A stretch of 64,000 nucleotides of DNA from a virus: positions 1 through 64,000 of the IMG/VR virus record IMGVR_UViG_3300035698_019240; one strand, written 5' to 3'. The notes under the pieces were generated by a model. The model did not search any database. It had not been told where the DNA came from and saw nothing but the letters and a program-made list of their open reading frames with translations. The number at the start of each line of letters is the position of its first letter. Position 1 is the first letter of the stretch. Made by a program: the position numbers and the translations under genes. This document shows, one piece after another, positions 24,925 to 42,354 of the stretch.

Positions 24925-25413
24925 TCATATTATTTTCCTTTCTATTATTGCTACCGTATCATGTATTGCTCCACCGTGACTCAAGAGTAACACTTCCTCT
25001 TGTTCAAAACCACGGGTCTTACCCATACTCACGGAGTGGTAGCCAAAGGTTATTACTATACCATCTTTAACTAATAAATCACTAAGGTTATTTTTCACAG
25101 CATTGAATGTACTCATTGTACGGCCACCGTACATCTCCATACTCTTTCTATATGAGTATGGGGGATCAAGTAACACTGTTTCAAATACTACATTATCTTT
25201 AAACAATTCAACTAATTGTAGACCATCCTCATGGTAATCTGATGGCGACTCTGGATCACTATCATTTCTTATTTCATTAACCCCTTCTAACTCAGTAATA
25301 CCTGCAAACAGGTTTAATGTTAAACCTTCACAACGACTTTCAACCCATTCCCGTATCCTTCTATTTCTAAAAGTGTATTTATACAGTGGTGTCTTCATGT
25401 ATGTAAATTTCAT
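24925..25413 (-). CDS. Small SAM-dependent amino-methyltransferase (probable DNA adenine MTase)
   Basis: LNLFAG (motif I) and LLDPPY (motif IV). Confidence 0.7.
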   Translation of the reverse strand: MKFTYMKTPLYKYTFRNRRIREWVESRCEGLTLNLFAGITELEGVNEIRNDSDPESPSDYHEDGLQLVELFKDNVVFETVLLDPPYSYRKSMEMYGGRTMSTFNAVKNNLSDLLVKDGIVITFGYHSVSMGKTRGFEQEEVLLLSHGGAIHDTVAIIERKII

Positions 25414-25709
25414 ATCTCTATCTCCTTAAATAGTTCATCTACATCTATAATAGGTTTATCTTCTATCCAATTTTTATTACAAGCCCATGTATATCCTGAA
25501 ATTTTATCATATATCGCAAAATGATAAGTGGCACTATCATTATTATTGTAATATTTGTCTATAGTAAACTCTTTACCGAATATATGAAACATTTCACTGT
25601 CAATATAACTTTTATTTGCATGAAATCCTCCACATTTATCCTTTAGTATTTTAAATTCTTCTCTCATCTTATCCAGAGTTTTGAATTTTACCTTATCTCC
25701 TACTTTCAT
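25410..25709 (-). CDS. Tail-tagged small protein, family B
   Basis: GDKVKFKTL...MFHIFG; ends [13 protein letters not shown]. Confidence 0.8.
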   Translation of the reverse strand: MKVGDKVKFKTLDKMREEFKILKDKCGGFHANKSYIDSEMFHIFGKEFTIDKYYNNNDSATYHFAIYDKISGYTWACNKNWIEDKPIIDVDELFKEIEI

Positions 25710-25951
25710 ATATCTATATCCTCAAACAATTCATTAACATTCATAATAAGATCATCCACCATAAACAAATCATTAAATGAGTAATTGTTTTCTTGTCCAT
25801 TATCCCATTCTATACTTATCCAGTCCTTAAAACCTTCTGTGTGATTTTTTACTGTACCCACTACCTTTGATTTGCTATACCAAGGATTAGATGGACGATT
25901 AAAATATCGATCATCTATAAGTCCTACTCTGTCTCCTATCTTAAATTTCAT
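25706..25951 (-). CDS. Tail-tagged small protein, family A (SH3-like)
   Basis: IGDRV...IEWDNG..NNY; ends IMNVNELFEDIDI. Confidence 0.8.
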   Translation of the reverse strand: MKFKIGDRVGLIDDRYFNRPSNPWYSKSKVVGTVKNHTEGFKDWISIEWDNGQENNYSFNDLFMVDDLIMNVNELFEDIDI

Positions 25952-26172
25952 ATATCTATATCCTTAAATAGATCATCAACATCAAGTAACATTGAATCCT
26001 TACACTCTTTATAAGTATGTTCACCACCAAATAGTGAACTAGTATTTTCACAATTCCATTCACATGAACGATTTGTTTTAATATGAGGCACTTTATGAAA
26101 ACATCCCACTACTGTACAATAATCATATGCACTACATATAACTTTATTCTTATACATTATAACACTTTTCAC
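25948..26172 (-). CDS. Tail-tagged small protein, family C (Cys/His-rich)
   Basis: C..C.H..PH..C; ends LLDVDDLFKDIDI. Confidence 0.75.
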   Translation of the reverse strand: MKSVIMYKNKVICSAYDYCTVVGCFHKVPHIKTNRSCEWNCENTSSLFGGEHTYKECKDSMLLDVDDLFKDIDI

Positions 26173-26187
26173 GCATATTGTAAATTT

Positions 26188-26328
26188 TTATTTAATTCCC
26201 CATGTGACGAATTTTTCTGCCAATCTTTCTGCTAATTTCATATATTTTAATAAAATCAATGTCATAACTATTACCCATACAGGTGCCAAACATGTGTAAA
26301 ATATAATATTTTTAATTCCTTTTCTCAT
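26188..26328 (-). CDS. Small hydrophobic peptide (46 aa)
   Basis: Hand-translated; starts at the ATGA overlap with the upstream tagged gene. Confidence 0.5.
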   Translation of the reverse strand: MRKGIKNIIFYTCLAPVWVIVMTLILLKYMKLAERLAEKFVTWGIK

Positions 26329-26561
26329 ATATCTATCTCCTCAAATAGTTCATCTACATCAATAATAGGATCCTCATCTACTATAAATAATTGATGAGGT
26401 TCGTAATTGTTTTCTTGTCCATTATCCCATTCTACACTTACCCAATCCCATTTTGATAATAAAGTACCTATAATTCCAGTCTTACTATACCATGGATTAG
26501 CGGCTCTGTTAGTGTAAATATCATCATATAGACCTACCCTATCACCTACTTTAAATTTCAT
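26325..26561 (-). CDS. Tail-tagged small protein, family A
   Basis: Ends IIDVDELFEEIDI. Confidence 0.8.
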   Translation of the reverse strand: MKFKVGDRVGLYDDIYTNRAANPWYSKTGIIGTLLSKWDWVSVEWDNGQENNYEPHQLFIVDEDPIIDVDELFEEIDI

Positions 26562-26815
26562 ATATCAATCTCCGAAAATAACTCGTCCACATCCATGATG
26601 TTTTCAATTACTTCAAACAGTTCGCCTCTACTGTATCCGTTTTTAAGTCCGTTATCCCACATTACAGATGGATGCCAACCAGACCTTAATATAGTACCTA
26701 CAATTCCAGTCTCACTATACCATGGATTATGGTCATTATTTGCGTATAAACCTACTCTATCACCAACTTCCCATTTTCTATTATCTTTTTTTCTTATATC
26801 TTTTCCTTTTATCAT
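26558..26815 (-). CDS. Tail-tagged small protein, family A
   Basis: Ends IMDVDELFSEIDI. Confidence 0.8.
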   Translation of the reverse strand: MIKGKDIRKKDNRKWEVGDRVGLYANNDHNPWYSETGIVGTILRSGWHPSVMWDNGLKNGYSRGELFEVIENIMDVDELFSEIDI

Positions 26816-27027
26816 ATCTCTATATCCTCAAACAGTTCATCTACATCTATTATTATATTCACTTCTTCCTTACAAAATACAGCAATTTCCCACTTAAACC
26901 TGGCATGATAACATTCGTTACGCTTACACTCATCACCACTATTCATAGGTATATGAGGAGTTCTGTGAGAACATGTACGCCTATCACATTTATCACTATA
27001 TTCACATATAATTTTTTGTTCTATCAT
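26812..27027 (-). CDS. Tail-tagged small protein, family C
   Basis: Ends IIDVDELFEDIEI. Confidence 0.8.
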   Translation of the reverse strand: MIEQKIICEYSDKCDRRTCSHRTPHIPMNSGDECKRNECYHARFKWEIAVFCKEEVNIIIDVDELFEDIEI

Positions 27028-27212
27028 ATATCTATATCCTCAAACAACTCATCAACATCCATTAATTTTTCATCTAAAGGAACGCATTTATGATTAGTCT
27101 CTTGCATACAAATGGCTCCACATCGTAAAGATTTACAATGAGGCACCATGTGATTACACATATCACAATCTAATTTACATATGTTCGCTGATTCACATAT
27201 ATATAATGTCAT
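27024..27212 (-). CDS. Tail-tagged small protein, family C
   Basis: Ends LMDVDELFEDIDI. Confidence 0.8.
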   Translation of the reverse strand: MTLYICESANICKLDCDMCNHMVPHCKSLRCGAICMQETNHKCVPLDEKLMDVDELFEDIDI

Positions 27213-27514
27213 ATATCAATCTCCTTAAATAGGTCGTCTACATCCATTATGATTTCAATAAACGGTACAATCCAATCATACTTGAAACTCCAAAACCTCC
27301 TGTTTATTAGATCCCAGATTACAAAATCGTATTTAGAATACGGTTGTTTTACATACTGTATCGTCTGTTCCCAACCGAACATATGAAACATTTTCTTATT
27401 GATTAACCATCCACCAATAACAATACTTTCATCATCACGACAGTAACAATCATATTGTAGTTTTATATCTTCAAGAGTTTTTAACTTTATTATGTCATTT
27501 TTTACGTATGTCAT
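27209..27514 (-). CDS. Tail-tagged small protein, family B
   Basis: Ends IMDVDDLFKEIDI. Confidence 0.8.
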   Translation of the reverse strand: MTYVKNDIIKLKTLEDIKLQYDCYCRDDESIVIGGWLINKKMFHMFGWEQTIQYVKQPYSKYDFVIWDLINRRFWSFKYDWIVPFIEIIMDVDDLFKEIDI

Positions 27515-27858
27515 TACACATCATCCGTATCATATAACAGGTTAATAACTATATTTGCTATATCAATTTTATGCTCGTTAATTGTTTTTTTAATAATTGG
27601 CATATGGTAATTTTTCTCATTTTTTGATATATACAAGGCCAAATTGTGTGTCTTTACTCGTATATGGTCAGTAATCATCAAATCCTTTACCACTTGTCCA
27701 ACCGGCACACATTCTTCCTTAACCATTCCATCGAAGTCGTTTCCATCAATCTTGTTACTCTCTTTATCATTAAACCATGATTCAACTCTTGCCATTCGTT
27801 GTTCCATTTTCTTCATCCATCTTTGTGTTATATTATCTGTCTTTTTAAGTTTCATCAT
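27514..27858 (-). CDS. Hypothetical protein (untagged)
   Basis: AGGAG RBS; lies within the array. Confidence 0.6.
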   Translation of the reverse strand: MMKLKKTDNITQRWMKKMEQRMARVESWFNDKESNKIDGNDFDGMVKEECVPVGQVVKDLMITDHIRVKTHNLALYISKNEKNYHMPIIKKTINEHKIDIANIVINLLYDTDDV

Positions 27859-27870
27859 AATTTCTCTCCT

Positions 27871-28167
27871 TTATATGTCTATACCCTCAAACAACTCATC
27901 AACATCAATGATAGTTTTATCTTCTATCCATTCTTTACAAAAACTCCATCCGAAATCATAATCATTTTCATATATCTCAAAGTCATAACCATCATAATTA
28001 TCATCATCATATACTCTATATATGATATTTGTATTTCCGAAAATGTGAAACATTTTCTTATTGATAAAATATCCGTTAACATGAATTCCGCTAAGGCCTT
28101 CGTCCCAAGGAAAAATTTCCTTTATCTTATCCAAACTCATTAGTTTTATCTTATCTCCTGCTTTCAT
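27871..28167 (-). CDS. Tail-tagged small protein, family B
   Basis: Ends IIDVDELFEGIDI. Confidence 0.8.
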   Translation of the reverse strand: MKAGDKIKLMSLDKIKEIFPWDEGLSGIHVNGYFINKKMFHIFGNTNIIYRVYDDDNYDGYDFEIYENDYDFGWSFCKEWIEDKTIIDVDELFEGIDI

Positions 28168-28388
28168 ATCTCTATATCCTCAAACAATTCATCAACATCC
28201 ATTATTGAGTCTTCTTTAGGTTTACAACCATCAAATTTTCGGTCTTCACCACCTATAGTTACAGTACAATCTATTGCACAATCATTTGTATATTTATGTT
28301 TACCTCTATGACTGCAATGCATCAATGGACAATTCCCTTCTATCCAACCATCACATTCCACAATTTCATGATATTCAATATCTCTCAT
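28164..28388 (-). CDS. Tail-tagged small protein, family C
   Basis: Ends IMDVDELFEDIEI. Confidence 0.8.
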   Translation of the reverse strand: MRDIEYHEIVECDGWIEGNCPLMHCSHRGKHKYTNDCAIDCTVTIGGEDRKFDGCKPKEDSIMDVDELFEDIEI

Positions 28389-28690
28389 ATGTCTATCTCC
28401 GAGAATAAGTCGTCTACATCCATTATGATTTCCTTATCTATCCACTTTTCACTAAATGCCCAAATACCCTCAGGACCTATTATATCAAAATCATAACCTC
28501 TCCCATTATTATTTTTCAATAAGTTGTTGATTCTCCATGACTTCCCGAACATATCAAGCATAAAACCATTAATGTGTAGATTCCCAACATTAAAATTTCT
28601 ACTATTAAGTATCTCTTTCAAACTGTATTGTAATTTTATTTGTCTAAGAGTTTTCAGTTTTATCTTATCTCCTACTTTCATATCTTTCAT
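28385..28690 (-). CDS. Tail-tagged small protein, family B
   Basis: Ends IMDVDDLFSEIDI. Confidence 0.8.
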   Translation of the reverse strand: MKDMKVGDKIKLKTLRQIKLQYSLKEILNSRNFNVGNLHINGFMLDMFGKSWRINNLLKNNNGRGYDFDIIGPEGIWAFSEKWIDKEIIMDVDDLFSEIDI

Positions 28691-28899
28691 ATCTCTATAT
28701 CCTCAAACAGTTTATCTACATCAATGATAGGACCATCATCTATTACTATCAATTCTGACTCAGTGTATATAACCGTATTTGGTTGATAATCCCATCTAAC
28801 ATGTATAGGATAATGCAACTCATAGTCAACTATCTTAACAGTTCCATGCCTCTTAAGGAGACCACTTTTTAACTTTACTCTATCATCGACTTTTATCAT
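28687..28899 (-). CDS. Tail-tagged small protein, family A
   Basis: Ends IIDVDKLFEDIEI. Confidence 0.8.
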   Translation of the reverse strand: MIKVDDRVKLKSGLLKRHGTVKIVDYELHYPIHVRWDYQPNTVIYTESELIVIDDGPIIDVDKLFEDIEI

Positions 28900-29312
28900 T
28901 ATTCAATAGCCATGAGTACTTTTTTTACCAGGCTTCCATCTACTGTTCCTTTCAATTCTTTCATTATTGGTCCCATTGCTTTCATCTTATTATGAAATTT
29001 ACTCAAGTCTACATTGGTCTTGATATACTCTTTTATGTCATCCTCGGATAGCAAATTTTCTTCCGGCAAGTATCCTTCAACTATATCAAGATATGTAGAA
29101 GTTTTATATTTCTTAGCATCAAGTACCATCTTTTCGTTTTTCCTTAGACCTTTCAGGATGTATACCAATTCGGCATCTGTTACTACTTCACCTACCTTTT
29201 TGTTCAACCGTGGTACCTCACCAAGTATGACCCGTATAGCACTACTCCTCAATGGCGTCTCGGCCTTCATACTTTCTTTTAAGTCTTTTCGTAATCTTTC
29301 ATATATAGTCAT
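28899..29312 (-). CDS. GatB/YqeY domain protein
   Basis: DLKESMKA...IRVIL.E...YLP..LSEDDI...MG.IMKELKG.VDG..VKK. Confidence 0.8.
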   Translation of the reverse strand: MTIYERLRKDLKESMKAETPLRSSAIRVILGEVPRLNKKVGEVVTDAELVYILKGLRKNEKMVLDAKKYKTSTYLDIVEGYLPEENLLSEDDIKEYIKTNVDLSKFHNKMKAMGPIMKELKGTVDGSLVKKVLMAIE

Positions 29313-29497
29313 TTACTAACTCCTTTCTTATTACAGTTTAATTGTTATAATTTCACGATCCTCATCACTAGGTACCTCATGTTCAGCACACCATTCGTTG
29401 AACATACCTGTTGTTATATCAAATCCATCCTCCCAGTCTGTTACCTTTTTACAAACAGTACAGTATTTTCTAAGTTGTTCATCATTGAAGTCCATAG

Positions 29498-29905
29498 TTA
29501 TATCCTTTCTACAAAAAATGGTAAACAGAAATTGAATGTATGTTTACAGTCGGCACACATTACATTTATTGACATTCCCCCTCTTGGTCCTCCACATATG
29601 TACTCACAACCACAATCAGGACAACACCTTTCTAATAGTATCCTTTTGAGTAGAGTGTCACTATCCATTTCAATTTTATCACATAAGGAGTCACATTCTT
29701 TCTCGCAGGGTTTACATGGGTATTTTACCTCAAGTATATCACCTCTAAGGGCTTCAGGAACTCTAACAAATCCCATCGACTTCCATCTTGGGTCTCCTGG
29801 CTGTATATCTTCATTAACCTTTTCTTTATTTTTAAGTATTGCTTCGACAAATACAAACACAAAAAATAATATCAAACCTATCAAACCTATTGTTGTCCAT
29901 TCCAT
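29498..29905 (-). CDS. Membrane-anchored Cys-rich protein, paralog of 32499
   Basis: N-terminal hydrophobic segment; YPCK.C...CCPDCG...C.DC.H.F. Confidence 0.7.
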   Translation of the reverse strand: MEWTTIGLIGLILFFVFVFVEAILKNKEKVNEDIQPGDPRWKSMGFVRVPEALRGDILEVKYPCKPCEKECDSLCDKIEMDSDTLLKRILLERCCPDCGCEYICGGPRGGMSINVMCADCKHTFNFCLPFFVERI

Positions 29906-29909
29906 TCCA

Positions 29910-30047
29910 TTACTCTCCTTTATTCAATTTATTCTTAGCACGTTCATAGTTGTTCGTCCTATTAAGTAGTTCAGTATACTTATCCTTTTCTATACTATTG
30001 TAAAGTCCTAAAGCAATCAATATTAATACCATTAAAATATATTCCAT
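29910..30047 (-). CDS. Small membrane-anchored peptide (45 aa)
   Basis: Hand-translated MEYILMVLILIALG...RTNNYERAK. Confidence 0.55.
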   Translation of the reverse strand: MEYILMVLILIALGLYNSIEKDKYTELLNRTNNYERAKNKLNKGE

Positions 30048-30053
30048 TATCAG

Positions 30054-30245
30054 TTACTCCTTTATTATATATTGTCTTTCACATTGATAACATTTCAAAC
30101 CTTCAGGCAGTGTAACACCACAACTGGGACAATCAATATCATTTTCACTAATGAAGTGATCATTTTTCCTCAGGTTTTCAAGTCGTGTGATACCACCTAT
30201 GCAATACTTTATCGTATCTAATATGTCTATCAAAAATCGTTTCAT
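30054..30245 (-). CDS. Small zinc-ribbon protein
   Basis: CPSC...CYQC. Confidence 0.55.
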   Translation of the reverse strand: MKRFLIDILDTIKYCIGGITRLENLRKNDHFISENDIDCPSCGVTLPEGLKCYQCERQYIIKE

Positions 30246-30246
30246 A

Positions 30247-30540
30247 TTATACCCTCGTATGACATTTATGTTCCCTACGTGCTTTGAAACTTCCCCTTAA
30301 TTCCTCAACCAAAGACTCACACTCTTTACAAATGTATATTTCTATACCCTCTTCCTTCTTATCATACCATACAAATCGACTCTCTACCAGTTCACATTCC
30401 AATCGTTCCAGTTCACGTTCATAATTTTTGACTCGGTGCATTTGAGTCTTTGACATCTGTTTCCTTTCTAAGATAATAATACCTTTAGAAATAAATACAC
30501 CCAGTAAACAAAACACTATTGCAATTAAAATTATTTCCAT
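30247..30540 (-). CDS. Membrane-anchored small protein with CxxC
   Basis: MEIILIAIVF...RVKNYER...CKEC. Confidence 0.65.
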   Translation of the reverse strand: MEIILIAIVFCLLGVFISKGIIILERKQMSKTQMHRVKNYERELERLECELVESRFVWYDKKEEGIEIYICKECESLVEELRGSFKARREHKCHTRV

Positions 30541-30845
30541 TTTGTATCCTCATCTTCATCCTCTTCTCCATTATATTTTGCACATTCATGAATACTTCGT
30601 TGATACATGCTACCTATTTCCTCCTCAACCACTGTGCCACATACCAAACACATGTATCGGTAATTACCCTTTTCATCTGTCCTAACAAAATGGAACATAT
30701 TCTTTAACCGTTCACGTTCCAGCCGTGCCTTTATAGCTTCATAACTATCGGTTCGGGAATACAGTATCTTTCTCCACCTTTTTCTCTCCTTTTCGCTATA
30801 AACTATAATACATAAACATACAATTACAAACAATATCCATTCCAT
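30531..30845 (-). CDS. Membrane-anchored small protein with CxxC
   Basis: MEWILFVIV...RTDSYE...CLVC. Confidence 0.65.
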   Translation of the reverse strand: MEWILFVIVCLCIIVYSEKERKRWRKILYSRTDSYEAIKARLERERLKNMFHFVRTDEKGNYRYMCLVCGTVVEEEIGSMYQRSIHECAKYNGEEDEDEDTKWK

Positions 30846-31061
30846 TATATTATCTCCTTTATCATTTAAGTCCTAACCGTAATACTATCCACCATACGAT
30901 GAAAAATATTACAAAATATATCCATTCACTCATTGTCTATTCCCTTTATATTAGGTACATCACTCCTATCTTGATGGCTCCTATTAGCCACATGATTATC
31001 TTCACTACGCCTATTAGCCACGGGGCTATCAGGCATATAATACAACCAGGTACATCCAGTT

Positions 31062-31316
31062 TTAATTTTTCTTCTGAAGGTTTTTTCCTTCATCCTCAAC
31101 AGCCTTACTTTTGTATATTGGATGTCTCTGTCCACATGAAAGGCACATATATGTGTCCTTTTCAACGGCCTTACCCTTCTCTATCATACGAATTTTTAAT
31201 ATCATATCATACAATTCCTTATACTCTCTTACATGTTCTCCCTTATGACTTCTATTATGATATATATCCTTCACCCATAGAAATACTAACACGATTACCA
31301 ATACCATATACTCCAT
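31062..31316 (-). CDS. Membrane-anchored small protein with CxxC
   Basis: MEYMVLVIV...YMCLSCG. Confidence 0.6.
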   Translation of the reverse strand: MEYMVLVIVLVFLWVKDIYHNRSHKGEHVREYKELYDMILKIRMIEKGKAVEKDTYMCLSCGQRHPIYKSKAVEDEGKNLQKKN

Positions 31317-31588
31317 TATATCACATCCTTTATATACTTATCCGGCTCGTCAAACGCCCACTCTGGTATGGTTATATTGTTGACCAATGTCCAAGCGTCA
31401 TCCAGTCTAACACCACTCTTGTATAAATCAATGTGCCCTATCCATTTTTCATTCAACACAAACTGGTCTGAATCAATCTTATACTTTTTACAGTAATACT
31501 TAACTATTATTTCGGCCGCCTTATTCATTTCCCATAAGGCATCTTTCCCTTTCCCTTGTGCTACCAGTAAATCTGTCACTAATCCCAT
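31316..31588 (-). CDS. Hypothetical protein
   Basis: RBS; within operon. Confidence 0.6.
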   Translation of the reverse strand: MGLVTDLLVAQGKGKDALWEMNKAAEIIVKYYCKKYKIDSDQFVLNEKWIGHIDLYKSGVRLDDAWTLVNNITIPEWAFDEPDKYIKDVI

Positions 31589-31590
31589 TT

Positions 31591-31914
31591 TTATATCTCC
31601 TTTTTTCTTAAATGTTTATAGTAAGCTTTTATTAATTTATTTATTTTTTTCCATACCGAATCAGGTCTTGGCATATTAACATATTCAAATGTAGGCGGTT
31701 TCTCCAAATACCTTTTCAATTCAAAGTACTTGCATTTACCATCTGAGTTTAGATCAGTACATTTCAATCTAACAATATTTCCAGTAATAGGACAGATGTT
31801 ACTCTTATCATGCTTACACCTGTAACCAGATGCCCCAAATTCAACAGAAGGATTATACAAACTATGTTTACATTCTTGACATATTATCATTTTATCTTTT
31901 GTTCTTTTACCCAT
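31591..31914 (-). CDS. Cys-rich hypothetical protein
   Basis: CQECKH...N.DGKCKYFE. Confidence 0.6.
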   Translation of the reverse strand: MGKRTKDKMIICQECKHSLYNPSVEFGASGYRCKHDKSNICPITGNIVRLKCTDLNSDGKCKYFELKRYLEKPPTFEYVNMPRPDSVWKKINKLIKAYYKHLRKKEI

Positions 31915-32235
31915 AATACATTTCCTTTACTGTTAAAGTTTTTATATACTTCTACCATTTCCATCCGATAGTAATTTTATCGTACTGTTCAACCAAACCA
32001 CCACTGTCCACTGGATGCCAACACATATGAGACATTTCAAAATACATACCCTGTTTGAAGATATCTACAGTTAATCCCAGGTCATATTTCACACTTGCTG
32101 GATGGAATCGTGTACTCTCACCCTCACCAACCGAGTCATCCATTAAGGTACTGATATTAGCCCATGGACGAAACATAAAATTCTTAGTATTAAACTTTCA
32201 CCCTACCTCAATCTCCGCTATATACTCCGCCACAT

Positions 32236-32403
32236 TCATACTTTCAATTCTTTAACTATCATCATACTTTCATATAACGGACACTTCTCTAATTTCTCCA
32301 GTGATATATTCTGATCCTCACCACACTCGTAAACACCTGCATCCGTATCGGCAGGGGTAAGCAACATTTCACATCCGTTTTCTTTACAATATTCTACATC
32401 CAT
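32236..32403 (-). CDS. Small hypothetical protein, first gene after an early promoter
   Basis: Probable start MDVEYC after AGGA. Confidence 0.5.
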   Translation of the reverse strand: MDVEYCKENGCEMLLTPADTDAGVYECGEDQNISLEKLEKCPLYESMMIVKELKV

Positions 32404-32433
32404 TTTATATTCCTTTCTCTCATTTATGTATCC

Positions 32434-32462
32434 ATTATAACACACGATGACCTATTTGTAAA
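32434..32462 (-). promoter_or_regulatory. Early (sigma70-type) promoter
   Basis: TTTACA-N17-TATAAT with TG extension. Confidence 0.75.
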
Positions 32463-32498
32463 TCCACCATTTTACACTGTCCTTTCAGTCACTTACTG

Positions 32499-32906
32499 CT
32501 ACAGGCTCATCTTACTACACTTTAATCCTAAGAACATCCTCTCCACACGTGTAGGTTGTTCAAATCTGAAGCCATTAATATGAAAATAATGGCCGCAATC
32601 CTCACATTTCACATCTATTGTCCCTGGTCCACGACGCATCACAGGAACGAACAATGACCCACAATCCGGACAGCACATGTGATTTGTTATCTTTTCCCTC
32701 AAGACATATTCATCCCTCTCCAGCAAGGAGCATAACTTTTCACACCCTGAATTGTACATAAGACAACTCTTACATGGATATAACAAATCCTCCTTCATTT
32801 TCCGTTCATCCTTACATATATCCACCTTCAACTTTCTTATCATCCTCAACTTCTGAATGATCATCACTATCAATATCATTATTAAACTTATCGTAATTAA
32901 TTCCAT
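32499..32906 (-). CDS. Membrane-anchored Cys-rich protein, paralog of 29498
   Basis: Same Cys pattern as 29498. Confidence 0.7.
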   Translation of the reverse strand: MELITISLIMILIVMIIQKLRMIRKLKVDICKDERKMKEDLLYPCKSCLMYNSGCEKLCSLLERDEYVLREKITNHMCCPDCGSLFVPVMRRGPGTIDVKCEDCGHYFHINGFRFEQPTRVERMFLGLKCSKMSL

Positions 32907-33064
32907 ATCTCTATCTCCTTAAATAGTTCATCCACATCCATTATTGGTACTTCTTTAGGTATAAACATATCAAAAACAAAATCAGGAGTAGTCTTACATT
33001 CCTTACAGGGAGACAATCTCCAATTACGTCCTGAATAATAACATGTTGTACAATTCCTTTCCAT
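32897..33064 (-). CDS. Tail-tagged small Cys protein (55 aa, not in ORF track)
   Basis: Hand-translated MERNCTTC...[16 protein letters not shown]. Confidence 0.75.
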   Translation of the reverse strand: MERNCTTCYYSGRNWRLSPCKECKTTPDFVFDMFIPKEVPIMDVDELFKEIEIWN

Positions 33065-33202
33065 AATCCCTTACTTTCGTCTCCGTATACCTTTCTTATT
33101 TCTCTTATTCATATAACAATCCACAACTATCACTATCAAAGCTATACCCCACATCACCAGGACAGCAACTCTTAGTTTTAGTATTATCGTAATTAATTCC
33201 AT

Positions 33203-33820
33203 TTAATTCACCAACCTTATGATAGGACCACACACATCCTTTGCTAAGTTACCATAACTGATATCCTTACCGGCGGCATGTTTCCTTTTATGACATGGTA
33301 CACACAAGCACTGTCCGTTCGGTGGGTCAAGAGCTAAATACTTCTTTCTCTTTACAGGCTCTATATGGTGTACTTCCTCCGCCTGTCGTCCACACTCCTC
33401 ACAGGTGGGATAATTCTTTTTATACTTCGCCATATTCCGTCGTCCAACTTCTTTCCTCCACGCCGCCCTTTCCGAACTTATGGTAACTACACCTATCCAC
33501 TCTTCCGTCTCAACACCCAGTCTACTCCTCTCGCCCGCTTTCTCCAGGTAATCAAGACCTTTACCAAATACAGGACAGGAATGTTTACATCCATCACTGC
33601 AATAGAAATTATTACTCCCCGGCAGCCTCCCCTTTAAGACACCACTTCTATGTAGTACCTGATTCATCGTAGGTCGGAACACCTTCTCACACCCACTATA
33701 GTAACATCTAACATTCAGGACATCACTATCCTCAGGGTCCCGGAAACATTCATTAGCAGGATACAACTGTGGCTGATACAATTTATAACTCGGTAACTTA
33801 TCACCATACTTCCATCCCAT
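33203..33820 (-). CDS. HNH endonuclease
   Basis: CEECG...VHHIEPV...NGQCLCVPCH; probable start MGWKY. Confidence 0.8.
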   Translation of the reverse strand: MGWKYGDKLPSYKLYQPQLYPANECFRDPEDSDVLNVRCYYSGCEKVFRPTMNQVLHRSGVLKGRLPGSNNFYCSDGCKHSCPVFGKGLDYLEKAGERSRLGVETEEWIGVVTISSERAAWRKEVGRRNMAKYKKNYPTCEECGRQAEEVHHIEPVKRKKYLALDPPNGQCLCVPCHKRKHAAGKDISYGNLAKDVCGPIIRLVN

Positions 33821-33998
33821 ATCGTTATCTCCTCCACGGTAGGAAATCACAAATACAAACCAACACTACATCCATAATAGTCACTAAGACCAACGCTATA
33901 TTCATCACCATTTCCACTAACACATCAACCACTCTCACCAAGACCGTTATACAGTCCATCAATATATAAGCTATCACTTCAAGTACCGCCATCATACC

Positions 33999-34907
33999 CT
34001 ACACCTTTCTTTTACATATTTTATTTGCTAACATTCCCGTACTACAGTCCTTATCTCCGGCAGGATGTCCTATTTTGTAGTGACACCTTTTACATAAGCA
34101 CATACCGTTATTTGGATCCATTGCCTGTTCAGGATGTGTCTTAACCGGATGTATATGGTGCACAACTTCTGCCGGCTCCTCACATTTCTCACAGGTAGGA
34201 TGGAAATTATCGTATATCACTATGTTCCGTTCAATAACCTCAGTTCTCCATATGACCCTCTCCGAAGCCGTGTATATAGTACCTTCCCATTCGTTATCTT
34301 CATCATGACCATTGTGTATCTTTATCAACGCTTCTTCCGCTCCCTTCACCGATTTACCATATATAGGACACATATCCTTACAACCATCACTACAATAAAG
34401 ATCACCACTTTTCCCACATGTTTTCATCGCATTAATCCTACGCCACACTTGACCTCTTGTAGGTCTGAACACCTTCCCACAACCACTATAGTAACATTTC
34501 ACATTCAAAATATTACCATCCTCCGGGTCACGGGAACACTCATATCCAAGCAACTGTTCCGCATATAAATCATATCTCGGTATATCTCTTGTACCATACC
34601 CACCCTTCCAAGTAGGATTATTCACTCCACTAACTTTCCCCTTCGTCTCCTCAGTATGTTTTTTTCCATACATAGGATGATTTTTTCCTCCACTCACAAC
34701 ACATTTATTATCACAATAATGAAATTTAGATTTACTACCTTTACTATAAAACATTTTTCCACCACAATTCCGACATATTCCTTCAAGATATAAATTAAAA
34801 TCTATTTTACCACCCTTACCAACACCCTTTTTCCTCCATACTCCTTTCAATTTCAGGTGAGGTATCAAGATTTCTATACCAGTTTTATATTTCATTATTT
34901 TATCCAC
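33999..34907 (-). CDS. HNH homing endonuclease with NUMOD3 motif
   Basis: YGKKHTEETK; CEKC...VHHIHPV...NGMCLCKRCH. Confidence 0.85.
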   Translation of the reverse strand: MDKIMKYKTGIEILIPHLKLKGVWRKKGVGKGGKIDFNLYLEGICRNCGGKMFYSKGSKSKFHYCDNKCVVSGGKNHPMYGKKHTEETKGKVSGVNNPTWKGGYGTRDIPRYDLYAEQLLGYECSRDPEDGNILNVKCYYSGCGKVFRPTRGQVWRRINAMKTCGKSGDLYCSDGCKDMCPIYGKSVKGAEEALIKIHNGHDEDNEWEGTIYTASERVIWRTEVIERNIVIYDNFHPTCEKCEEPAEVVHHIHPVKTHPEQAMDPNNGMCLCKRCHYKIGHPAGDKDCSTGMLANKICKRKV

Positions 34908-34930
34908 TTTCCTTTCACTTTTACACTATA

Positions 34931-34959
34931 AGGATAACACATTTTTTACCCATTGTAAA
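34931..34959 (-). promoter_or_regulatory. Early promoter, leftward
   Basis: TTTACA-N17-TATCCT with TG extension. Confidence 0.65.
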
Positions 34960-36029
34960 TCTATTACATCTAAAATTTTGTGCGGACGGAAGTTGAATGT
35001 CCTAAGGTTTAACAGGTGTATTTGTAGTGTAGTCAAACGCACCTTCATATCCGTCATCGCAAAAATTAGAAAATTTAGTGGCCTAAAGGTTTGGAGCAAA
35101 GGAGCACGCTCTCCGGTATAATCACAACCGCCTCAGACGCACGGGATTTCTTTTTCCTGTTCCAATCTTGCTCCAATCTCCCGTTAGTCACTATCACATC
35201 ACGGCTACTGGGTTACTGTTCTCCTTTCTCACATCCCATACCACGGGATACACATTACTCATGCACTTATTGATCAGGAGCACAGAGGCCTCGATCCTCT
35301 ACACACCCAATACCATATTCCCGCAGGATAACATTTTTCCTGTGGGAAATGAGGAAATGTGTGGGATATTGAGATAATAAGACCCACGGCGCACAGGACT
35401 CGTTGGATATCGTTGGGATGGTGCGCGGTCTTCCACATGTGAAAGGAGGTCAATGGGTGTCAGAGTGTATGATCACTCGGACTCGCGTCAGCATATACAG
35501 AATCACGATGAAATCTGCTCCAGAATCCGGGAGGGGCCCGGAATTCAATCCTCACTACATCTTGCGCAAACCTCTCAAAAACCACTAAACCGCCCTTTAC
35601 TCACCCATATAATATAAGCAAAAACACACATTTTCCTGCTCCCGGAATCCTGGAGGGGAGGATTTGCGGTAAAGCCATGGTGTCAAAAGTTCCGACGATC
35701 TTTACCTGTCTCACTATCCGTCATTTTGCGCAGTTTATACTTTTCAATCCGGATTCCGGGAAAATCCACGATTCCCATCGGAGAATGCGTTTTTAGTGTC
35801 CAGACCCCTGGATATCTATAGTACATAACTTCTTTAATACTTGGAAAGTATATAAATATTGCTTTTCCTTTATATTTGCTTATTTTTCACTGGATTCACG
35901 AAATCCTTAGATTAACACAAATGTCCTGATACTCTTTTCCTACTTTTCAATGGTATTTGCGTAAATTGTCAAAATAGTCCCGGGCCAGCTCAATTTCAAA
36001 ACGCCGGAAATGAAGGTTACAATATTATG
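34960..36029. other. Apparently non-coding, GC-richer region at the divergence point
   Basis: No credible ORF; coding strand switches here; flanked by divergent promoters. Confidence 0.6.
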
Positions 36030-36058
36030 TTTACATTTTATCAAAAATAATGTATAAT
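36030..36058 (+). promoter_or_regulatory. Early promoter, rightward
   Basis: (G)TTTACA-N17-TATAAT. Confidence 0.75.
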
Positions 36059-36082
36059 AGGTATATGAAATAAAGGAATAAA

Positions 36083-36820
36083 GTGCAAATGAAATATAGT
36101 GGGAAAAAATCTAAACCATTTACTTTCTTACATAGTGGTGTCAAGCTTTTAAAAAACACACCTGCAAAAATAAGAGAAAGTAAAAATAAAAGTACTAAGA
36201 ATAGGTGCTATGGAGAAAATCATCCTGGATGGAAAGGTGGTTATAGTATAAAAGGTATACCAACATATGATACTTACGCTCCTAAACTCTTTGCGGATGA
36301 GTGTTCCCGTGACCCGGAGGATGGTAATATCTTGAATGTGAAATGTTACTATAGTGGTTGTAAAGAATGTTTTAGGCCAAGTATAGGACAAGTCAGTGCA
36401 CGACTAACTGTTATAAAAATAGGAAATGATGGTAGAAATTTCTACTGCTCGGAAGAGTGTAAAAAATCTTGTTCTGTGTATCACATGAGAGTTGAATGGA
36501 TTATGAACCAGAATGATGGTAGAAATTTTTCAGATAATGAGGATAGATGGTATAGAGACACCCAACCAGAATTACGGGCCATGTGCTTGGAAAGAGATGG
36601 TTATATTTGTCAAACATGTGGAAAGCATGAGAGTGATCTTGATGTTTCATTACACTGTCATCATAGAGAAGGTGTATTTTGGGAACCATTGATGTCTGCT
36701 GATTTAGATATGGTTTTGACCGAGTGTGAAACATGTCATTATGATATACATAGAAAAGAAGGATGTAGGTCAGTGGATATGCAATGTCCATTTCTTGGAG
36801 CAGAAGGAGCGGATATATAG
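36083..36820 (+). CDS. HNH endonuclease
   Basis: ERDGYICQTCG...HCHH...CETCH. Confidence 0.85.
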   Translation: MQMKYSGKKSKPFTFLHSGVKLLKNTPAKIRESKNKSTKNRCYGENHPGWKGGYSIKGIPTYDTYAPKLFADECSRDPEDGNILNVKCYYSGCKECFRPSIGQVSARLTVIKIGNDGRNFYCSEECKKSCSVYHMRVEWIMNQNDGRNFSDNEDRWYRDTQPELRAMCLERDGYICQTCGKHESDLDVSLHCHHREGVFWEPLMSADLDMVLTECETCHYDIHRKEGCRSVDMQCPFLGAEGADI

Positions 36821-36894
36821 GTGTGAATAATGGGGGTCCGTTAGGAATCGAAACAACGATGTCCGAGGAATCGGAAAAGGAAAGGGCGTGAGTT

Positions 36895-37107
36895 ATGAAA
36901 AAAATAACAGTATGGAATCGGTTAGGAGAAAATGGTTGGAATCACAATCATATTGAGGACGGATGGGTTGAAGGATCTAAACCAAAGGCGAAAAAAGCTG
37001 AATTCAAAAGGCAGATTAGTGGTTGGAAAAATAATTTGTGGAGAAAGTCATATGAGTATTTGACTGTTGATAATAAAGTAATATGGTGGAATGGTGAAAA
37101 TAAATGA
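36895..37107 (+). CDS. Hypothetical Trp-rich protein
   Basis: 70-aa ORF overlapping the next gene by ATGA. Confidence 0.55.
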   Translation: MKKITVWNRLGENGWNHNHIEDGWVEGSKPKAKKAEFKRQISGWKNNLWRKSYEYLTVDNKVIWWNGENK

Positions 37108-37373: not shown

Positions 37374-37551
37374 TATGGAAAAGTATTCAAGAAAGTGGAA
37401 GTATGTTAGTAATGACAATGGTATAATTACCAAGAGATTGAAGGTTCCTAACGGTTGGATAGTTAAGTCCTGGATGGATGGTAGTCCTGATTCGTTGAAT
37501 ATGTTATTTGTTCCAGAAGATCAGGCACATTACTGGGAGTTAGAAAAATAA

Positions 37552-37803
37552 ATGAGTGCCATTCAAATAGGAGATAGAGTAATATTAACAACTGATAGGT
37601 ACGATAGTAGTGCTATGAATCCTCGTTATGATAAAACAGGAATTAAAGGAAATGTAACGAGGATAGTATATATGGACAGAAAAACAAGGATATATGTTAA
37701 ATGGGATACTGGAAGGAATAATGGATATGATGTGTCGGACTTAGAAGTTGCTGATAACATCATCATTGATGTGGATGACCTGTTCTCGGAGATTGATATA
37801 TGA
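37552..37803 (+). CDS. Tail-tagged small protein, family A
   Basis: Ends IIDVDDLFSEIDI. Confidence 0.8.
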   Translation: MSAIQIGDRVILTTDRYDSSAMNPRYDKTGIKGNVTRIVYMDRKTRIYVKWDTGRNNGYDVSDLEVADNIIIDVDDLFSEIDI

Positions 37804-38027
37804 TAGTTGGAGATACAGTAAGGTTAACGACCGACAGGTATGGTAATTGTGATGTAAATCCTTGTTATGATAAAACAGGAGTTGAAGGAGAAGTAACTGA
37901 TATAGAAGAAGGTACTATATATGTTAAATGGGATAATGGAAGGAATAATGTATATGTTAAGTCGGACTTAGGAGTTATTCTTCCTATTATAGATGTGGAC
38001 GACCTGTTCTCGGAGATTGAGATATGA
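37800..38027 (+). CDS. Tail-tagged small protein, family A
   Basis: Ends IIDVDDLFSEIEI. Confidence 0.8.
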   Translation: MIVGDTVRLTTDRYGNCDVNPCYDKTGVEGEVTDIEEGTIYVKWDNGRNNVYVKSDLGVILPIIDVDDLFSEIEI

Positions 38028-38266
38028 AGTTTAAAGTTGGAGATAGAGTAAAACTAATAACAAAAAGACATGGTGTAGGTTATTCTAATCCTTATTGGCC
38101 AAAATATGGAATAGAAGGTGTTATAACGGAAACATGGCAGGACATAACTTTTTATGTCAAATGGGATAATACGGGGAAAAATAGTTATAGTTCTAATGAT
38201 TTGGAATTAGTAGATGTTAAACCTCTTATAGATGTGGATGAACTGTTTGAAGGGATAGAGATATGA
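38024..38266 (+). CDS. Tail-tagged small protein, family A
   Basis: Ends LIDVDELFEGIEI. Confidence 0.8.
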   Translation: MKFKVGDRVKLITKRHGVGYSNPYWPKYGIEGVITETWQDITFYVKWDNTGKNSYSSNDLELVDVKPLIDVDELFEGIEI

Positions 38267-38508
38267 AAGTCGGAGATAGAGTAAGGTTAACAAAGGATCG
38301 TTTTACATTGTGTGAGGAAAATCCAAAATGGCCTGAGTATGATGTTCTTGGTGTTATTGCTTATATCGGAAATTCAAATATGGAAATGAATATAAGGGTA
38401 GATTGGGATAATGGACATAATAATATTTATGATAACTTTGATTTAAGAATTATAGAAGATAAACCTATTATAGATGTAGATGAACTATTTAAGGAGATAG
38501 AGATATGA
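38263..38508 (+). CDS. Tail-tagged small protein, family A
   Basis: Ends [13 protein letters not shown]. Confidence 0.8.
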   Translation: MKVGDRVRLTKDRFTLCEENPKWPEYDVLGVIAYIGNSNMEMNIRVDWDNGHNNIYDNFDLRIIEDKPIIDVDELFKEIEI

Positions 38509-39617: not shown

Positions 39618-39795
39618 AGTATATAACCAGAATCATGAGGGAATCGTTGTACGGATTGATTATAATTTACGTCATCCAATATATGTTGAATGGGATGGTT
39701 CTTGTTTTCATTATTGCTACTATGCTAACGAATTGGGATTGTTGATTGAAAACATCATAGATGTTGATGAGTTGTTTGAGGATATAGAGATATGA
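39601..39795 (+). CDS. Tail-tagged small protein, family A (probable TTG start overlapping the ald end)
   Basis: TTG AAA GTT GGG GAT AGA GTA = MKVGDRV; ends IIDVDELFEDIEI. Confidence 0.75.
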   Translation: MKVGDRVYNQNHEGIVVRIDYNLRHPIYVEWDGSCFHYCYYANELGLLIENIIDVDELFEDIEI

Positions 39796-40064: not shown

Positions 40065-40067
40065 TAT

Positions 40068-40340: not shown

Positions 40341-40585
40341 AAAAATGGAAAGTAGGAGATAGGGTAGTACTGAATAACAACATTTATGGTGATAGTCCTA
40401 GTAACCCTTTTATAGACCAAACAGAAGGTACAATTAGAGAGGTTGATGATCCTTCTTTTTATGGTCAAAATATAGTAGTGGACTGGTTGAATGGTAGTCA
40501 TAATTGTTATTATTCTAGTGATTTAAAGGAAGTTGAAGAAAATATAATAGATGTTGATGAACTATTTTCGGAGATAGATATATGA
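40337..40585 (+). CDS. Tail-tagged small protein, family A
   Basis: Ends IIDVDELFSEIDI. Confidence 0.8.
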   Translation: MKKWKVGDRVVLNNNIYGDSPSNPFIDQTEGTIREVDDPSFYGQNIVVDWLNGSHNCYYSSDLKEVEENIIDVDELFSEIDI

Positions 40586-40797
40586 AGTTAAAAATTGGAA
40601 ACAGAGTGGCATGGTATGGAGATCAAAGTTTTACTCGTAAAGGAACAGTAAAGAATATATCAAATATTTCCAAGTTTCCTTATTTAATACTATGGGATGA
40701 TGGAAGTCGTGGATGGTACAGTGAATCATTTATAGTATTAATGGATGATGATAAAATTATGGATGTTGAAGAATTATTTAAGGAGATTGAGATATGA
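40582..40797 (+). CDS. Tail-tagged small protein, family A
   Basis: Ends [13 protein letters not shown]. Confidence 0.8.
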   Translation: MKLKIGNRVAWYGDQSFTRKGTVKNISNISKFPYLILWDDGSRGWYSESFIVLMDDDKIMDVEELFKEIEI

Positions 40798-41045: not shown

Positions 41046-41278
41046 TGCGGAAAGTAGGAGATAGAGTAAAATTAACAAGTATAGTTCACGGTATATCTGA
41101 TAGTAATCCATATTTTCTAAAATACAAAATCTTGGGAACCGTTTATAAAGTTTTAGGTTTAGAATGGACTTGTCCATTTAAAGTTAAATGGGATAATGGT
41201 ATAAAGAATGGATATAATTCATGGGATCTAGAAGACTCGGAATATATTATTGGTCTTGATGAGTTGTTTGAATTATGA
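41045..41278 (+). CDS. Family A small protein with degenerate tag
   Basis: Ends IIGLDELFEL. Confidence 0.75.
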   Translation: MRKVGDRVKLTSIVHGISDSNPYFLKYKILGTVYKVLGLEWTCPFKVKWDNGIKNGYNSWDLEDSEYIIGLDELFEL

Positions 41279-42147: not shown

Positions 42148-42354
42148 ATGGAAGATTATGTAATATGTGATGCGTATGTAATTTGTGATTGGCATGGTAA
42201 ATGTCATCATAAAAAACCTCATATTAAAGATTCTATGTGTGATATCAATGGATGTAATTGTGTAGATGGAAATGTTAGTTGTTCTCCTGTAAACACTGTT
42301 GATATATTGGATAAAAATGAAGTGGATGAATGGTTCAGAGAAATAGAATTGTAA
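42148..42354 (+). CDS. Family C small protein with degenerate tag
   Basis: C..CHHKKPH; ends EVDEWFREIEL. Confidence 0.7.
   Translation: MEDYVICDAYVICDWHGKCHHKKPHIKDSMCDINGCNCVDGNVSCSPVNTVDILDKNEVDEWFREIEL

Follow-up and report, generated by a model that had tools for sequence, protein, structure and literature searches.

The C-terminal tails of small genes in an uncultured, T4-like salt-lake phage are under two constraints at once. Their DNA encodes a common peptide tag, and it also carries the Shine-Dalgarno (SD) sequence and the ATGA start of the following gene. The last codons of the tag have very probably been chosen to spell, in addition to the peptide, the ribosome-binding site and the overlapping start of the next gene. 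The mechanism is the already known -4 overlap with an intragenic SD, an ordinary form of gene packing and nothing new. The window analysed comprises the first 64,000 nucleotides of the 92-kb record IMGVR_UViG_3300035698_019240.

Tagged genes and their junctions

The tag is common to about 25 small genes. Across the whole 92-kb record, 22 ORFs end in the motif DVD(E/D)LFxxI(D/E)I and three more have degenerate tails. All 25 are confined to 25.4-42.4 kb (Table 1), with nine tails between 26325 and 28899. The small tagged genes of this early region form two divergent arrays without intergenic space. The excess over chance is large: GAGATATGA occurs 10 times, with 1.1 occurrences expected.

The three tail endings reported by the first-pass annotation are all present. 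AAG GAG ATA GAG ATA TGA lies at 25410 (-) and 38491 (+), both outside the span 26325-28899; GAG GAT ATA GAG ATA TGA is found at 26812-26829 (-) and TCG GAG ATT GAT ATA TGA at 26558-26575 (-). A further combination, AAG GAG ATT GAT ATA TGA, is located at 27209-27226 (-).

Most tails indeed overlap the next ATG by four nucleotides, as had been claimed: 18 of the 22 canonical tails end in ATA-TGA, and an ORF 40 amino acids or longer begins at each of these ATGs. Many of the ORFs start with the family motif MK(F)KVGD. One further tail has ATA-TGG, which brings the endings with an ATG over the stop position to 19. This is the case, noted in the first pass, of a next gene beginning with ATG G. The stop is lost, the sequence at 32906 reads ATA TGG AAT TAA, the tagged protein ends in EIEIWN, and the ORF 32499-32906 begins at the ATG within it. 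The remaining canonical tails comprise one ATA-TAA-TG ending with a 1-nt overlap, one TAA stop followed by a gene with its own AGGAGAG site and one TAA stop without an adjoining gene.

Table 1. Tails of the tagged genes, with the SD sequence present in each tail and the gene that follows
Tail	Position	Strand	SD in tail	Junction and following gene
11 aa + TGA	25410..25445	-	AAGGAG, 8 nt before ATG 25413	gene starting at 25413 (-), DPPY-motif methyltransferase-like
NVNELFEDIDI + TGA	25706..25741	-	GAGGAT	ATGA start of gene 25410-25709
DVDDLFKDIDI + TGA	25948..25983	-	AAGGAT	ATGA start of gene 25706-25951
DVDELFEEIDI + TGA	26325..26360	-	GAGGAG	ATGA start of 46-aa membrane ORF 26188-26328
DVDELFSEIDI + TGA	26558..26593	-	GGAG (from TCG GAG)	ATGA start of gene 26325-26561
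DVDELFEDIEI + TGA	26812..26847	-	GAGGAT	ATGA start of gene 26558-26815
DVDELFEDIDI + TGA	27024..27059	-	GAGGAT	ATGA start of gene 26812-27027
DVDDLFKEIDI + TGA	27209..27244	-	AAGGAG	ATGA start of gene 27024-27212
DVDELFEGIDI + TAA	27871..27906	-	GAGGGT, still kept	no overlap; gene 27514-27858 (-) with own AGGAGAG site
DVDELFEDIEI + TGA	28164..28199	-	GAGGAT	ATGA start of gene 27871-28167
DVDDLFSEIDI + TGA	28385..28420	-	TCG GAG	ATGA start of gene 28164-28388
DVDKLFEDIEI + TGA	28687..28722	-	GAGGAT	ATGA start of gene 28385-28690
11 aa, read through as WN-stop	32897..32938	-	AAGGAG	next gene 32499-32906 starts ATG G
DVDDLFSEIDI + TGA	37768..37803	+	TCG GAG	ATGA start of gene 37800-38027
DVDDLFSEIEI + TGA	37992..38027	+	TCG GAG	ATGA start of gene 38024-38266
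DVDELFEGIEI + TGA	38231..38266	+	AAGGGA (from GAA GGG), weakest SD, -5.1 kcal/mol	ATGA start of gene 38263-38508
11 aa + TGA	38473..38508	+	AAGGAG	ATGA start of gene 38505-39617 (+), 370 aa, read as alanine dehydrogenase (ald)
DVDELFEDIEI + TGA	39760..39795	+	GAGGAT	ATGA start of 90-aa membrane gene 39792-40064
DVDELFSEIDI + TGA	40550..40585	+	TCG GAG	ATGA start of gene 40582-40797
11 aa + TGA	40762..40797	+	AAGGAG	ATGA start of gene 40794-41045
DVEELFGDIDI + TAA	41010..41045	+	GGAGAT, 13 nt from ATG	TAATG, 1-nt overlap with gene 41045-41278
(G)LDELFEL, degenerate and short, TTA TGA	41255..41278	+	poor, -2.2 kcal/mol	ATGA start of gene 41275-41448
DIDDLFSDVEV + TAA	41413..41448	+	none (codons TCT GAT GTT GAA GTA), -0.5 kcal/mol	next ORF 80 nt away; natural control
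VDEWFREIEL, degenerate	42322..42354	+		Cys-rich head

Codon and residue choice

Synonymous codon choice separates the two constraints. Lysine in the tails is always encoded by AAG (6/6), a codon with a 25% share in the genome. Serine in coupled tails is always TCG (5/5; genome share 4%), and the final isoleucine at position -1 is ATA in 19 of 19 tails (genome share 0.53). The stop codon is TGA in 18 of 22 tails and in 4 of 74 long genes, and three of these four long genes also have an ATGA junction. For glutamate, 19 tails have 18 GAG and one GAA at -5/-4, compared with 11 GAA and three GAG at -9/-8 (Fisher 2e-5); the tails are paralogous and exchange by gene conversion, so these counts are not fully independent, a problem that the internal controls lessen and do not remove. 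Isoleucine at -3 is less uniform in the 19 tails, with 14 ATA and five ATT.

Pairs of tails that share a residue use the same codon in 94% of cases at -5/-4 and in 100% at -1, compared with 57% at -11 to -6 and 62% at -3. Leucine at -7 is encoded by CTA, CTG, TTA and TTG in about equal use, valine at -10 by three codons, and the upstream aspartate codons vary just as freely. Because these upstream codons are free to vary, the peptide itself must be selected as well.

The residues are also restricted. Seven different residue pairs occur at -5/-4, and every one keeps the purine core. Codons for aspartate never end in G. Glutamate and aspartate are interchangeable at -8, -4 and -2, and position -5 has 18 glutamates and no aspartate in a set of tails including 16 long-tail relatives from other samples (short JGI, Logan and ENA contigs), four of which share one JGI contig of 1,524 nt. 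With distant relatives counted, aspartate is absent from -5 in all 38 tails. The purine core at the variable residues noticed in the first pass is upheld by evidence for selection at synonymous sites, as GGAG, GAGG or AGGA located 8-9 nt before the overlapping ATG.

Strength and accessibility of the SD

The duplex energy with the anti-SD has a mean of -7.1 kcal/mol for the tails and -2.25 kcal/mol for synonymous resampling, with the canonical anti-SD sequence assumed for the host. An SD as weak as codon usage alone would give had been named beforehand as the result that would speak against dual coding; the tails clearly exceed that level. The strength and spacing of the tail SDs match those of the other genes of the phage. 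An SD of -5 kcal/mol or stronger precedes 78% of the 74 long genes and is present at 13-16% of background positions; the spacing peaks at 7-8 nt in the genome and is 8-9 nt in the tails. Non-tail ATGA junctions of the genome likewise have their SD in the upstream coding sequence.

Two tails count against selection for the SD. The tail at 27871 (-) kept GAGGGT despite the SD of the next gene itself, and the degenerate tail at 41255 (+) kept ATGA with almost no SD.

The predicted unpaired probability of the ribosome-binding region is 0.45 at tail junctions, 0.47 in random coding sequence and 0.56 at long-gene starts. A binding region as little open as that modelled at the tail junctions fits a reliance on the upstream ribosome. 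A scan of the arrays for promoters and terminators gave results at or below shuffled expectation, and the sole good promoter-like site within the minus arm is located at 26184-26156. A search for RNA sequencing runs containing the phage gave none.

Proposed mechanism

Transcription of the small early genes presumably yields long polycistronic mRNAs. Each gene encodes a folded head, a flexible linker and a short C-terminal peptide of acidic-hydrophobic character. In ATA-TGA the start of the next gene overlaps the stop codon, and the ribosome-binding site of that gene must therefore fall within the five final codons of the tag. Selection has probably fixed the rare G-ending codons AAG, GAG and TCG there, held the loosely constrained residues -5 and -4 to pairs that give GGAG, GAGG or AGGA, and fixed ATA for the final isoleucine and TGA for the stop. 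A 30S subunit or the terminating ribosome would then pair with the tail site and initiate the next gene. From the sequence we infer that the tail SD is used in vivo and that each start is coupled to termination of the preceding gene. AAGGAG at a distance of 8 nt could also bring in ribosomes independently of upstream translation. The repeated tail may in addition serve as a homology patch, at which cassettes and foreign genes are swapped and are still translatable.

Relatives and structure

Shorter tails of the type (P)EELFEI are present on other, independent T4-like contigs. All seven end in ATA-TGA, and the pattern search was unbiased at the end codons (ATH, TRR). In these tails a weaker SD-like element lies at a distance of 11-13 nt, and three of the seven have just GAAGAG, which counts against selection for the SD. 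A tentative and rather doubtful reading is that the xxI(D/E)I extension represents, for the most part, a translated ribosome-binding site. The short ...ELFEI-stop would be ancestral, nine additional bases including a tandem GAGATA copy would have moved the SD from a poor distance of 11-13 nt to the optimum of 8 nt, and tag, SD and ATGA would have spread as one recombination-competent joint. If true, the joint would shuffle heads, let captured host genes such as ald and the methyltransferase-like gene be translated immediately, and be a coding-sequence counterpart to the promoter-early stem-loop (PeSL) cassettes discussed below.

A distant blastn of 25400-29320 against a collection of cultured phages had no match. 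Cultured phages searched by tblastn with a family-A protein gave heads without the tail and nothing else, among them those of Proteus phage Pm5461 and Pseudomonas phage UAVern. When the long tail was back-translated into an unbiased pattern, IMG/VR yielded only an unrelated internal motif, DVDDFFGMIEIS, and a profile-driven scan for the long tail revealed no relative there. JGI metagenome contigs yielded neither a relative nor a pattern match for the long tail. A word-indexed protein search returned only the query itself.

AF2 predicted a confident beta-barrel head (pLDDT around 90) and a short helix for tail residues 64-81 (pLDDT around 50-55). Foldseek with the family-A head found only generic SH3/KOW-like small barrels (PetP, YorP, PsaE, MIB/HERC2) with E values above 0.001.

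Tail exchange and alternative explanations

Tail DNA moves between unrelated genes. A patch of 57 nt is identical in two unrelated genes, one of family C (25410-25466, -) and one of family A on the opposite arm (38452-38508, +). The chance of this identity given the same peptide is P ~1e-5, and the pre-tail IEDKP of the patch is native to family C. A tail ATG also serves as the start of five non-cassette genes: the methyltransferase-like gene, ald, a membrane gene labelled PQ-loop by the first-pass annotation (39792-40064) and two other membrane genes. The earlier view of the tail as a portable joint is in part supported by these findings. Its second part, that a gene landing behind a tail would be expressed at once, is an evolutionary argument and stays conditional.

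The same patch also speaks for a different emphasis, in which a recombination joint came first. The 33-57-nt tail repeat would be kept mainly as a homology patch for the shuffling of cassettes and the capture of genes, and SD and ATGA would travel along. It would be a translational counterpart to the PeSL cassettes of T4-type phages, which set a precedent (PMC2839356). The head families are intermixed along the arrays and not grouped, the methyltransferase-like, ald and membrane genes adjoin tails, and the first 12 nt of ald are identical to those of the cassette at 37800. However, only the SD and ATGA codons are under synonymous constraint; elsewhere the tail is about 57% codon-identical, and selection for homology length would not leave such a pattern. 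In four salt-lake runs, the contigs also contained no credible rearrangement at the tails and had the same sequence. As the primary cause, a recombination joint is possible and we consider it unlikely; it is compatible with dual coding by the SD, and the two are not mutually exclusive. The only recurrent 'joint' in the contigs of the salt-lake runs had sides of 23 nt and was dismissed.

The GGAG element could have functions other than initiation. The RegB endoribonuclease cuts GGAG in the SDs of T4 early genes. For a T4-like phage with tagged genes in an early-type region, GGAG might mark mRNA-processing sites for a RegB-like shut-off of early transcripts, or an SD-like pausing before termination. 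This is very improbable: many tails have GAGGAT or AAGGAT and no GGAG, and the fixed 8-9-nt spacing to the ATG together with ATA-TGA is explained by initiation only. RegB (PF10715) had no match in the 92-kb record, and control genomes were likewise without a match.

Descent of the G-rich codons from one founder tail, homogenised by gene conversion without any selection for an SD, agrees with the paralogy of the tails and at least one recent conversion tract, yet it is hardly credible at all, as all seven residue pairs at -5/-4 retain the purine core, adjacent codons of these tails differ freely at synonymous sites, aspartate is absent from -5 even in distant relatives and the uncoupled tail at 41413 has lost the core.

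Dual coding makes the tails a clean natural case in which one short sequence carries two codes. With about 20 repeats and internal controls, synonymous sites and even residue choice show directly how strongly an intragenic SD is selected. The last residues of the shared tag cannot be read as a pure protein motif. In studies of binding partners of the tag, positions -5 and -4 and the A-ending terminal codon should be regarded as partly dictated by the ribosome.

Comparison with known systems

PeSL elements are mobile regulatory cassettes of T4-type phages (Arbiol et al. 2010, PMC2839356; Comeau et al. 2014, PMC4122927). Like the tails, they are short repeats between small non-essential genes in hyperplastic regions of T4-like phages and supply expression signals; they make modular shuffling by homologous recombination possible, as the tails may also do. 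In contrast to the tails, PeSLs are intergenic and consist of a promoter and a terminator; the tail is coding and provides translation signals, not transcription signals. The combination of a sigma-70-like early promoter and a stem-loop terminator was not found in the repeat, which is coding. For shuffling at the tails, the 57-nt patch is the one piece of support. Under the recombination reading, the tails would be a translational analogue to the promoter-terminator cassettes that are thought to drive shuffling in the hyperplastic regions of T4-like phages.

T4 gp43, gp55 and gp33 have hydrophobic-acidic C-terminal epitopes that bind the sliding clamp (Geiduschek and Kassavetis 2010, PMC2988020). 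The phage tag shares with them an acidic and hydrophobic peptide at the extreme C-terminus, a flexible linker, the possibility of swapping between proteins and the T4-like background. The register differs: T4 gp43 ends in SLDFLFG and gp55 in SLDFLYEAND, compared with (I/M)DVDELF... in the tag. A clamp-binding function of the tag was considered for its resemblance to the gp43 and gp55 tails and was unsupported in the short-tail relatives. There, the polymerase ends in MIDSIFG and the gp55 homologues in IDYTVLKEEK or similar, both unlike the tail of the small proteins. Homologues of gp43, gp55 and gp33 are not in the 92-kb record, which lacks half of the genome, and a search of the record for gp45 (PF02916) had no match, as was also the case for control genomes.

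At ATGA overlaps, an SD within the upstream coding sequence is the general rule in prokaryotes, and such gene pairs are known for translational coupling by termination-reinitiation (Huber et al. 2019, PMC6728339). The tail junctions share with these overlapping pairs a stop and a start that overlap by 4 nt, a normally spaced SD within the 3' end of the upstream ORF and the co-directional, tightly packed genes. They differ in that the phage joint recurs about 19 times and is built into a peptide tag of unrelated heads.

Embedded motifs cause local codon bias in coding sequences (PMC8410138), and SDs can overlap the upstream coding sequence or its stop codon (PMC2784483). In both these cases and the phage, a downstream SD shapes the choice of synonymous and stop codons at gene ends. 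The effect in the phage is unusually clean and, unlike in the known cases, also limits the residues, with no aspartate at -5.

Arrays of Tailed Genes in a T4-Type Phage

The 92-kb IMG/VR record has an estimated completeness of 47% and a G+C content of 33%; the window is its first 64 kb. Genes for a T4-type tail sheath, baseplate and terminase are present, and the large terminase is ~38% identical to cyanomyophage and other T4-like terminases. Several salt-lake metagenome runs hold near-identical contigs. At 24–43 kb, two divergent small-gene arrays occupy the minus and the plus strand, respectively. The gene-poor island from which they depart (~35–36 kb) is flanked by three paralogous HNH/NUMOD3-type endonuclease-like ORFs. 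The small genes, here called cassettes, share the C-terminal tail DVD(E/D)LFxxI(D/E)I behind unrelated heads, whose families (A, B and C) are intermixed rather than grouped within the arrays. A TTTACA-17-TATAAT site that has the TG of an extended −10 lies at the sole intergenic gap of the minus-arm array. Judged by its sequence, this site, which overlaps an ORF start, may be an internal early promoter.

Coordinates of features in the record
Feature	Strand	Position
ORF whose start overlaps the promoter-like site		25948–26172
TTTACA-17-TATAAT site	−	26156–26184
Intergenic gap	−	26173–26187
57-nt identity, family-C copy	−	25410–25466
57-nt identity, family-A copy	+	38452–38508
Endonuclease-like ORFs	−	33203–34907
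Endonuclease-like ORFs	+	36083–36820
ORF starting in the read-through tail		32499–32906
ald-like ORF		38505–39617
Tail without abutting gene		41413–41448
Non-tail ATGA junctions		23548, 37104, 40337, 89171

Tail Junctions

Scanning all six frames of the entire record yielded 22 ORFs ending in (D/N)(V/I)(D/N/E)(E/D/K)LFxx(I/V)(D/E)(I/V), all located at 25.4–41.4 kb. LDELFEL and VDEWFREIEL are degenerate endings; a third, DIDDLFSDVEV, is already among the 22. The first-pass annotation had proposed that the tail DNA doubles as Shine–Dalgarno (SD) sequence and ATGA start of the next gene and thus forms a portable translational-coupling joint. The junction observation was confirmed and is statistically strong. 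Eighteen tails terminate with ATA-TGA, every resulting ATG begins an ORF no shorter than 40 aa, and the codon strings quoted in the annotation were found in the sequence. The read-through described for the copy at 32906 matches the sequence as well: ATA TGG AAT TAA gives the protein end EIEIWN, and its ATG starts the next ORF. One tail reads ATA-TAA-TG with an overlap of 1 nt, one has TAA and then a separate AGGAGAG site, and one has TAA, 80 nt short of the next ORF. The cassette start at ATG 39592 is overlapped in another frame by the last 26 nt of the ald-like gene (within 39565–39620), so this cassette is without a tail-supplied SD.

Pairing of the 20 nt before the overlapping ATGs with the canonical anti-SD averaged −7.1 kcal/mol, against −2.25 kcal/mol for peptide-preserving resampling from genome codon usage. 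The SD within the tail is thus stronger than codon usage gives. Tail SDs are normal for the phage: pairing of at least 5 kcal/mol (−5 or better) occurs at 78% of long genes versus 13%–16% of background positions, and the spacing between core and ATG peaks at 7–8 nt in the genome and is 8 nt for xxG-GAG in tails. A natural control is provided by the tail without an abutting gene, which reads TCT GAT GTT GAA GTA TAA and lacks an SD (−0.5 kcal/mol). Counter-examples to this simple account are the tail at 27871, which retains GAGGGT though the following gene is served by a separate site, and the short degenerate tail at 41255, which retains ATGA with the SD nearly absent. The proposal is right on dual coding and on the SD with ATGA, and coupling to upstream translation and ‘plug-in’ gene capture are plausible. 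The sole hint that initiation may need upstream translation is the low predicted openness (−18 to +3) of the tail junctions, 0.45, compared to 0.47 for random coding sequence and 0.56 for long-gene starts.

Codon Choice and the Peptide

Codon choice in tails and in the genome (reference: 74 long ORFs of the record; positions counted back from the stop codon)
Codon	Genome	Tails
AAG (Lys)	0.25	6/6
GAG (Glu) at −5/−4	0.22	18/19 (19 coupled tails)
TCG (Ser)	0.04	5/5 (coupled tails)
ATA (Ile) at −1	0.53	19/19
TGA stop	4/74 long genes (3 of the 4 ATGA)	18/22

The strongest evidence that the codons exceed the demand of the peptide is a comparison within the tails. Glutamate at −9/−8 is encoded genome-like by 11 GAA and 3 GAG, and at −5/−4 by 18 GAG and 1 GAA (Fisher 2e-5). 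Isoleucine at −3 is ATA in 14 and ATT in 5 tails; at −1 only ATA occurs. For tail pairs with a shared residue, codon identity is 57% at −11 to −6, 62% at −3, 94% at −5/−4 and 100% at −1. This phage apparently reserves TGA for overlapping starts. Glutamate at −2 is GAG in 10/10 coupled tails (25410–41045), only 2 nt from the ATG and too near for a canonical SD; with the −4/−3 codons it forms the tandem GAGATA GAGATA.

Leucine at −7 uses CTA, CTG, TTA and TTG in near-equal numbers, valine at −10 has three codons and aspartate at −9 is GAT or GAC. The residues were thus kept through nucleotide change, and the peptide itself is also under selection. The label ‘dual coding’ is therefore fair: SD codons are constrained, while the other codons vary and their residues persist. 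AlphaFold2 on the family-A alignment gave a small beta-barrel head (pLDDT ~90) and low confidence for residues 64–81 (~50–55), with a short helix over DELFKEI. The model pictures the tail region as a linker with a short linear motif.

Searched with a profile, a set of 1.84 billion representative proteins gave 1,131 relatives of the family-A head. The long tail is present in 16 relatives from other samples (JGI, Logan, ENA), with the −5/−4 pairs ED, EG, KE, AE, EE, SE and KD; the record itself has KE, KD, EE, ED, SE, EG and GD. Among all 38 tails, position −5 has 18 Glu and 0 Asp, while Glu and Asp are freely interchanged at −8 (27:10), −4 (18:14) and −2 (22:15). The SD thus restricts the residue as well as the codon, since Asp codons, with their final pyrimidine, would disrupt the purine core. 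Proteins of ~1,000 residues (P0008, P0024, P0034) also carry 5–8 tandem repeats of the family-A head, which weak Pfam and Foldseek matches mark as SH3/MIB-HERC2-like.

Probable Exchange of Tail DNA

A 57-nt inverted identity links a family-C and a family-A cassette, and the flanking sequences differ at once on both sides. Chance agreement of all 18 codons for the same peptide has P ~1e-5. The patch looks copied from C to A, because the IEDKP before the tail is native to family C. Both copies precede enzyme-like genes, a DPPY-motif methyltransferase-like ORF and the 370-aa ald-like ORF, interpreted as alanine dehydrogenase. The latter and the cassette at 37800 begin with the same 12 nt, and a tail ATG is the start of five non-cassette genes in all. 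Together with the intermixed head families, this supports an exchange of tail DNA between genes, a reading that rests on one clear event; contigs of four metagenome runs held no alternative arrangement. A role like that of the PeSL cassettes of T4-type phages (PMC2839356) would be compatible with such exchange. Because synonymous constraint is limited to the SD and ATGA codons, selection on the nucleotides is chiefly for initiation, not homology.

Short Tails and Known Systems

A shorter tail, (L)P(E/D)(E/D)LF(E/D)(I/L), forms the C-terminus of many family-A relatives. On the 11-kb contig JAEHCK010000138.1 (L040:763-7400), eight small genes combine unrelated heads with (P)EELF(E/D)I-type ends. 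This contig is filed as a Thermoplasmata archaeon MAG, carries a sigma-70-like ORF and is apparently bacteriophage DNA wrongly binned with an archaeon. Its CCG GAG GAR gives GGAGGA, placed 11–13 nt ahead of ATGA or, where an internal TTG is the start, 5 nt ahead of it, and GAG for the first Glu is far above the 28% usage of the contig. Directly behind one of the tails, a large ORF resembles by eye a radical-SAM enzyme. A PEELFEI pattern with free Ile codon (ATH) and stop (TRR) found seven tails in IMG/VR contigs; 7/7 end in ATA-TGA, so the association of tag and ATGA predates the phage. The SD-like part is weaker, with nothing more than GAAGAG in 3/7. The long tail has nine extra bases after LF, with GAGATA twice in tandem and an SD spaced optimally, at 8 nt; we infer that this extension arose to place the SD there.

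The tag also resembles, suggestively, the ends of T4 gp43 (SLDFLFG) and gp55 (SLDFLYEAND), acidic-hydrophobic C-termini which are interchangeable clamp-binding epitopes behind flexible linkers (PMC2988020). Gp43, gp45 and gp55 were not found in the 92-kb record, and the gp45 profile search missed control genomes too. Gp55 homologues occur in 4/4 PEELFEI-tail records tested. In short-tail relatives, the polymerase ends in MIDSIFG and the gp55 homologues in IDYTVLKEEK or similar, different from the small-protein tail, and the tag was not classed as a clamp-binding motif. In a 204-kb T4-like contig (L056, G004:C1:157165-157491), the matched part of the gp55 homologue contains a single in-frame TGA.

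The non-tail ATGA junctions of the same genome also have the SD inside the upstream ORF. Overlapping gene pairs of the ATGA type are usually coupled, with a variable SD contribution (Huber et al., PMC6728339). The mechanism is thus known in kind. What differs here is the placement of the joint inside a mobile peptide tag, in ~20 copies.
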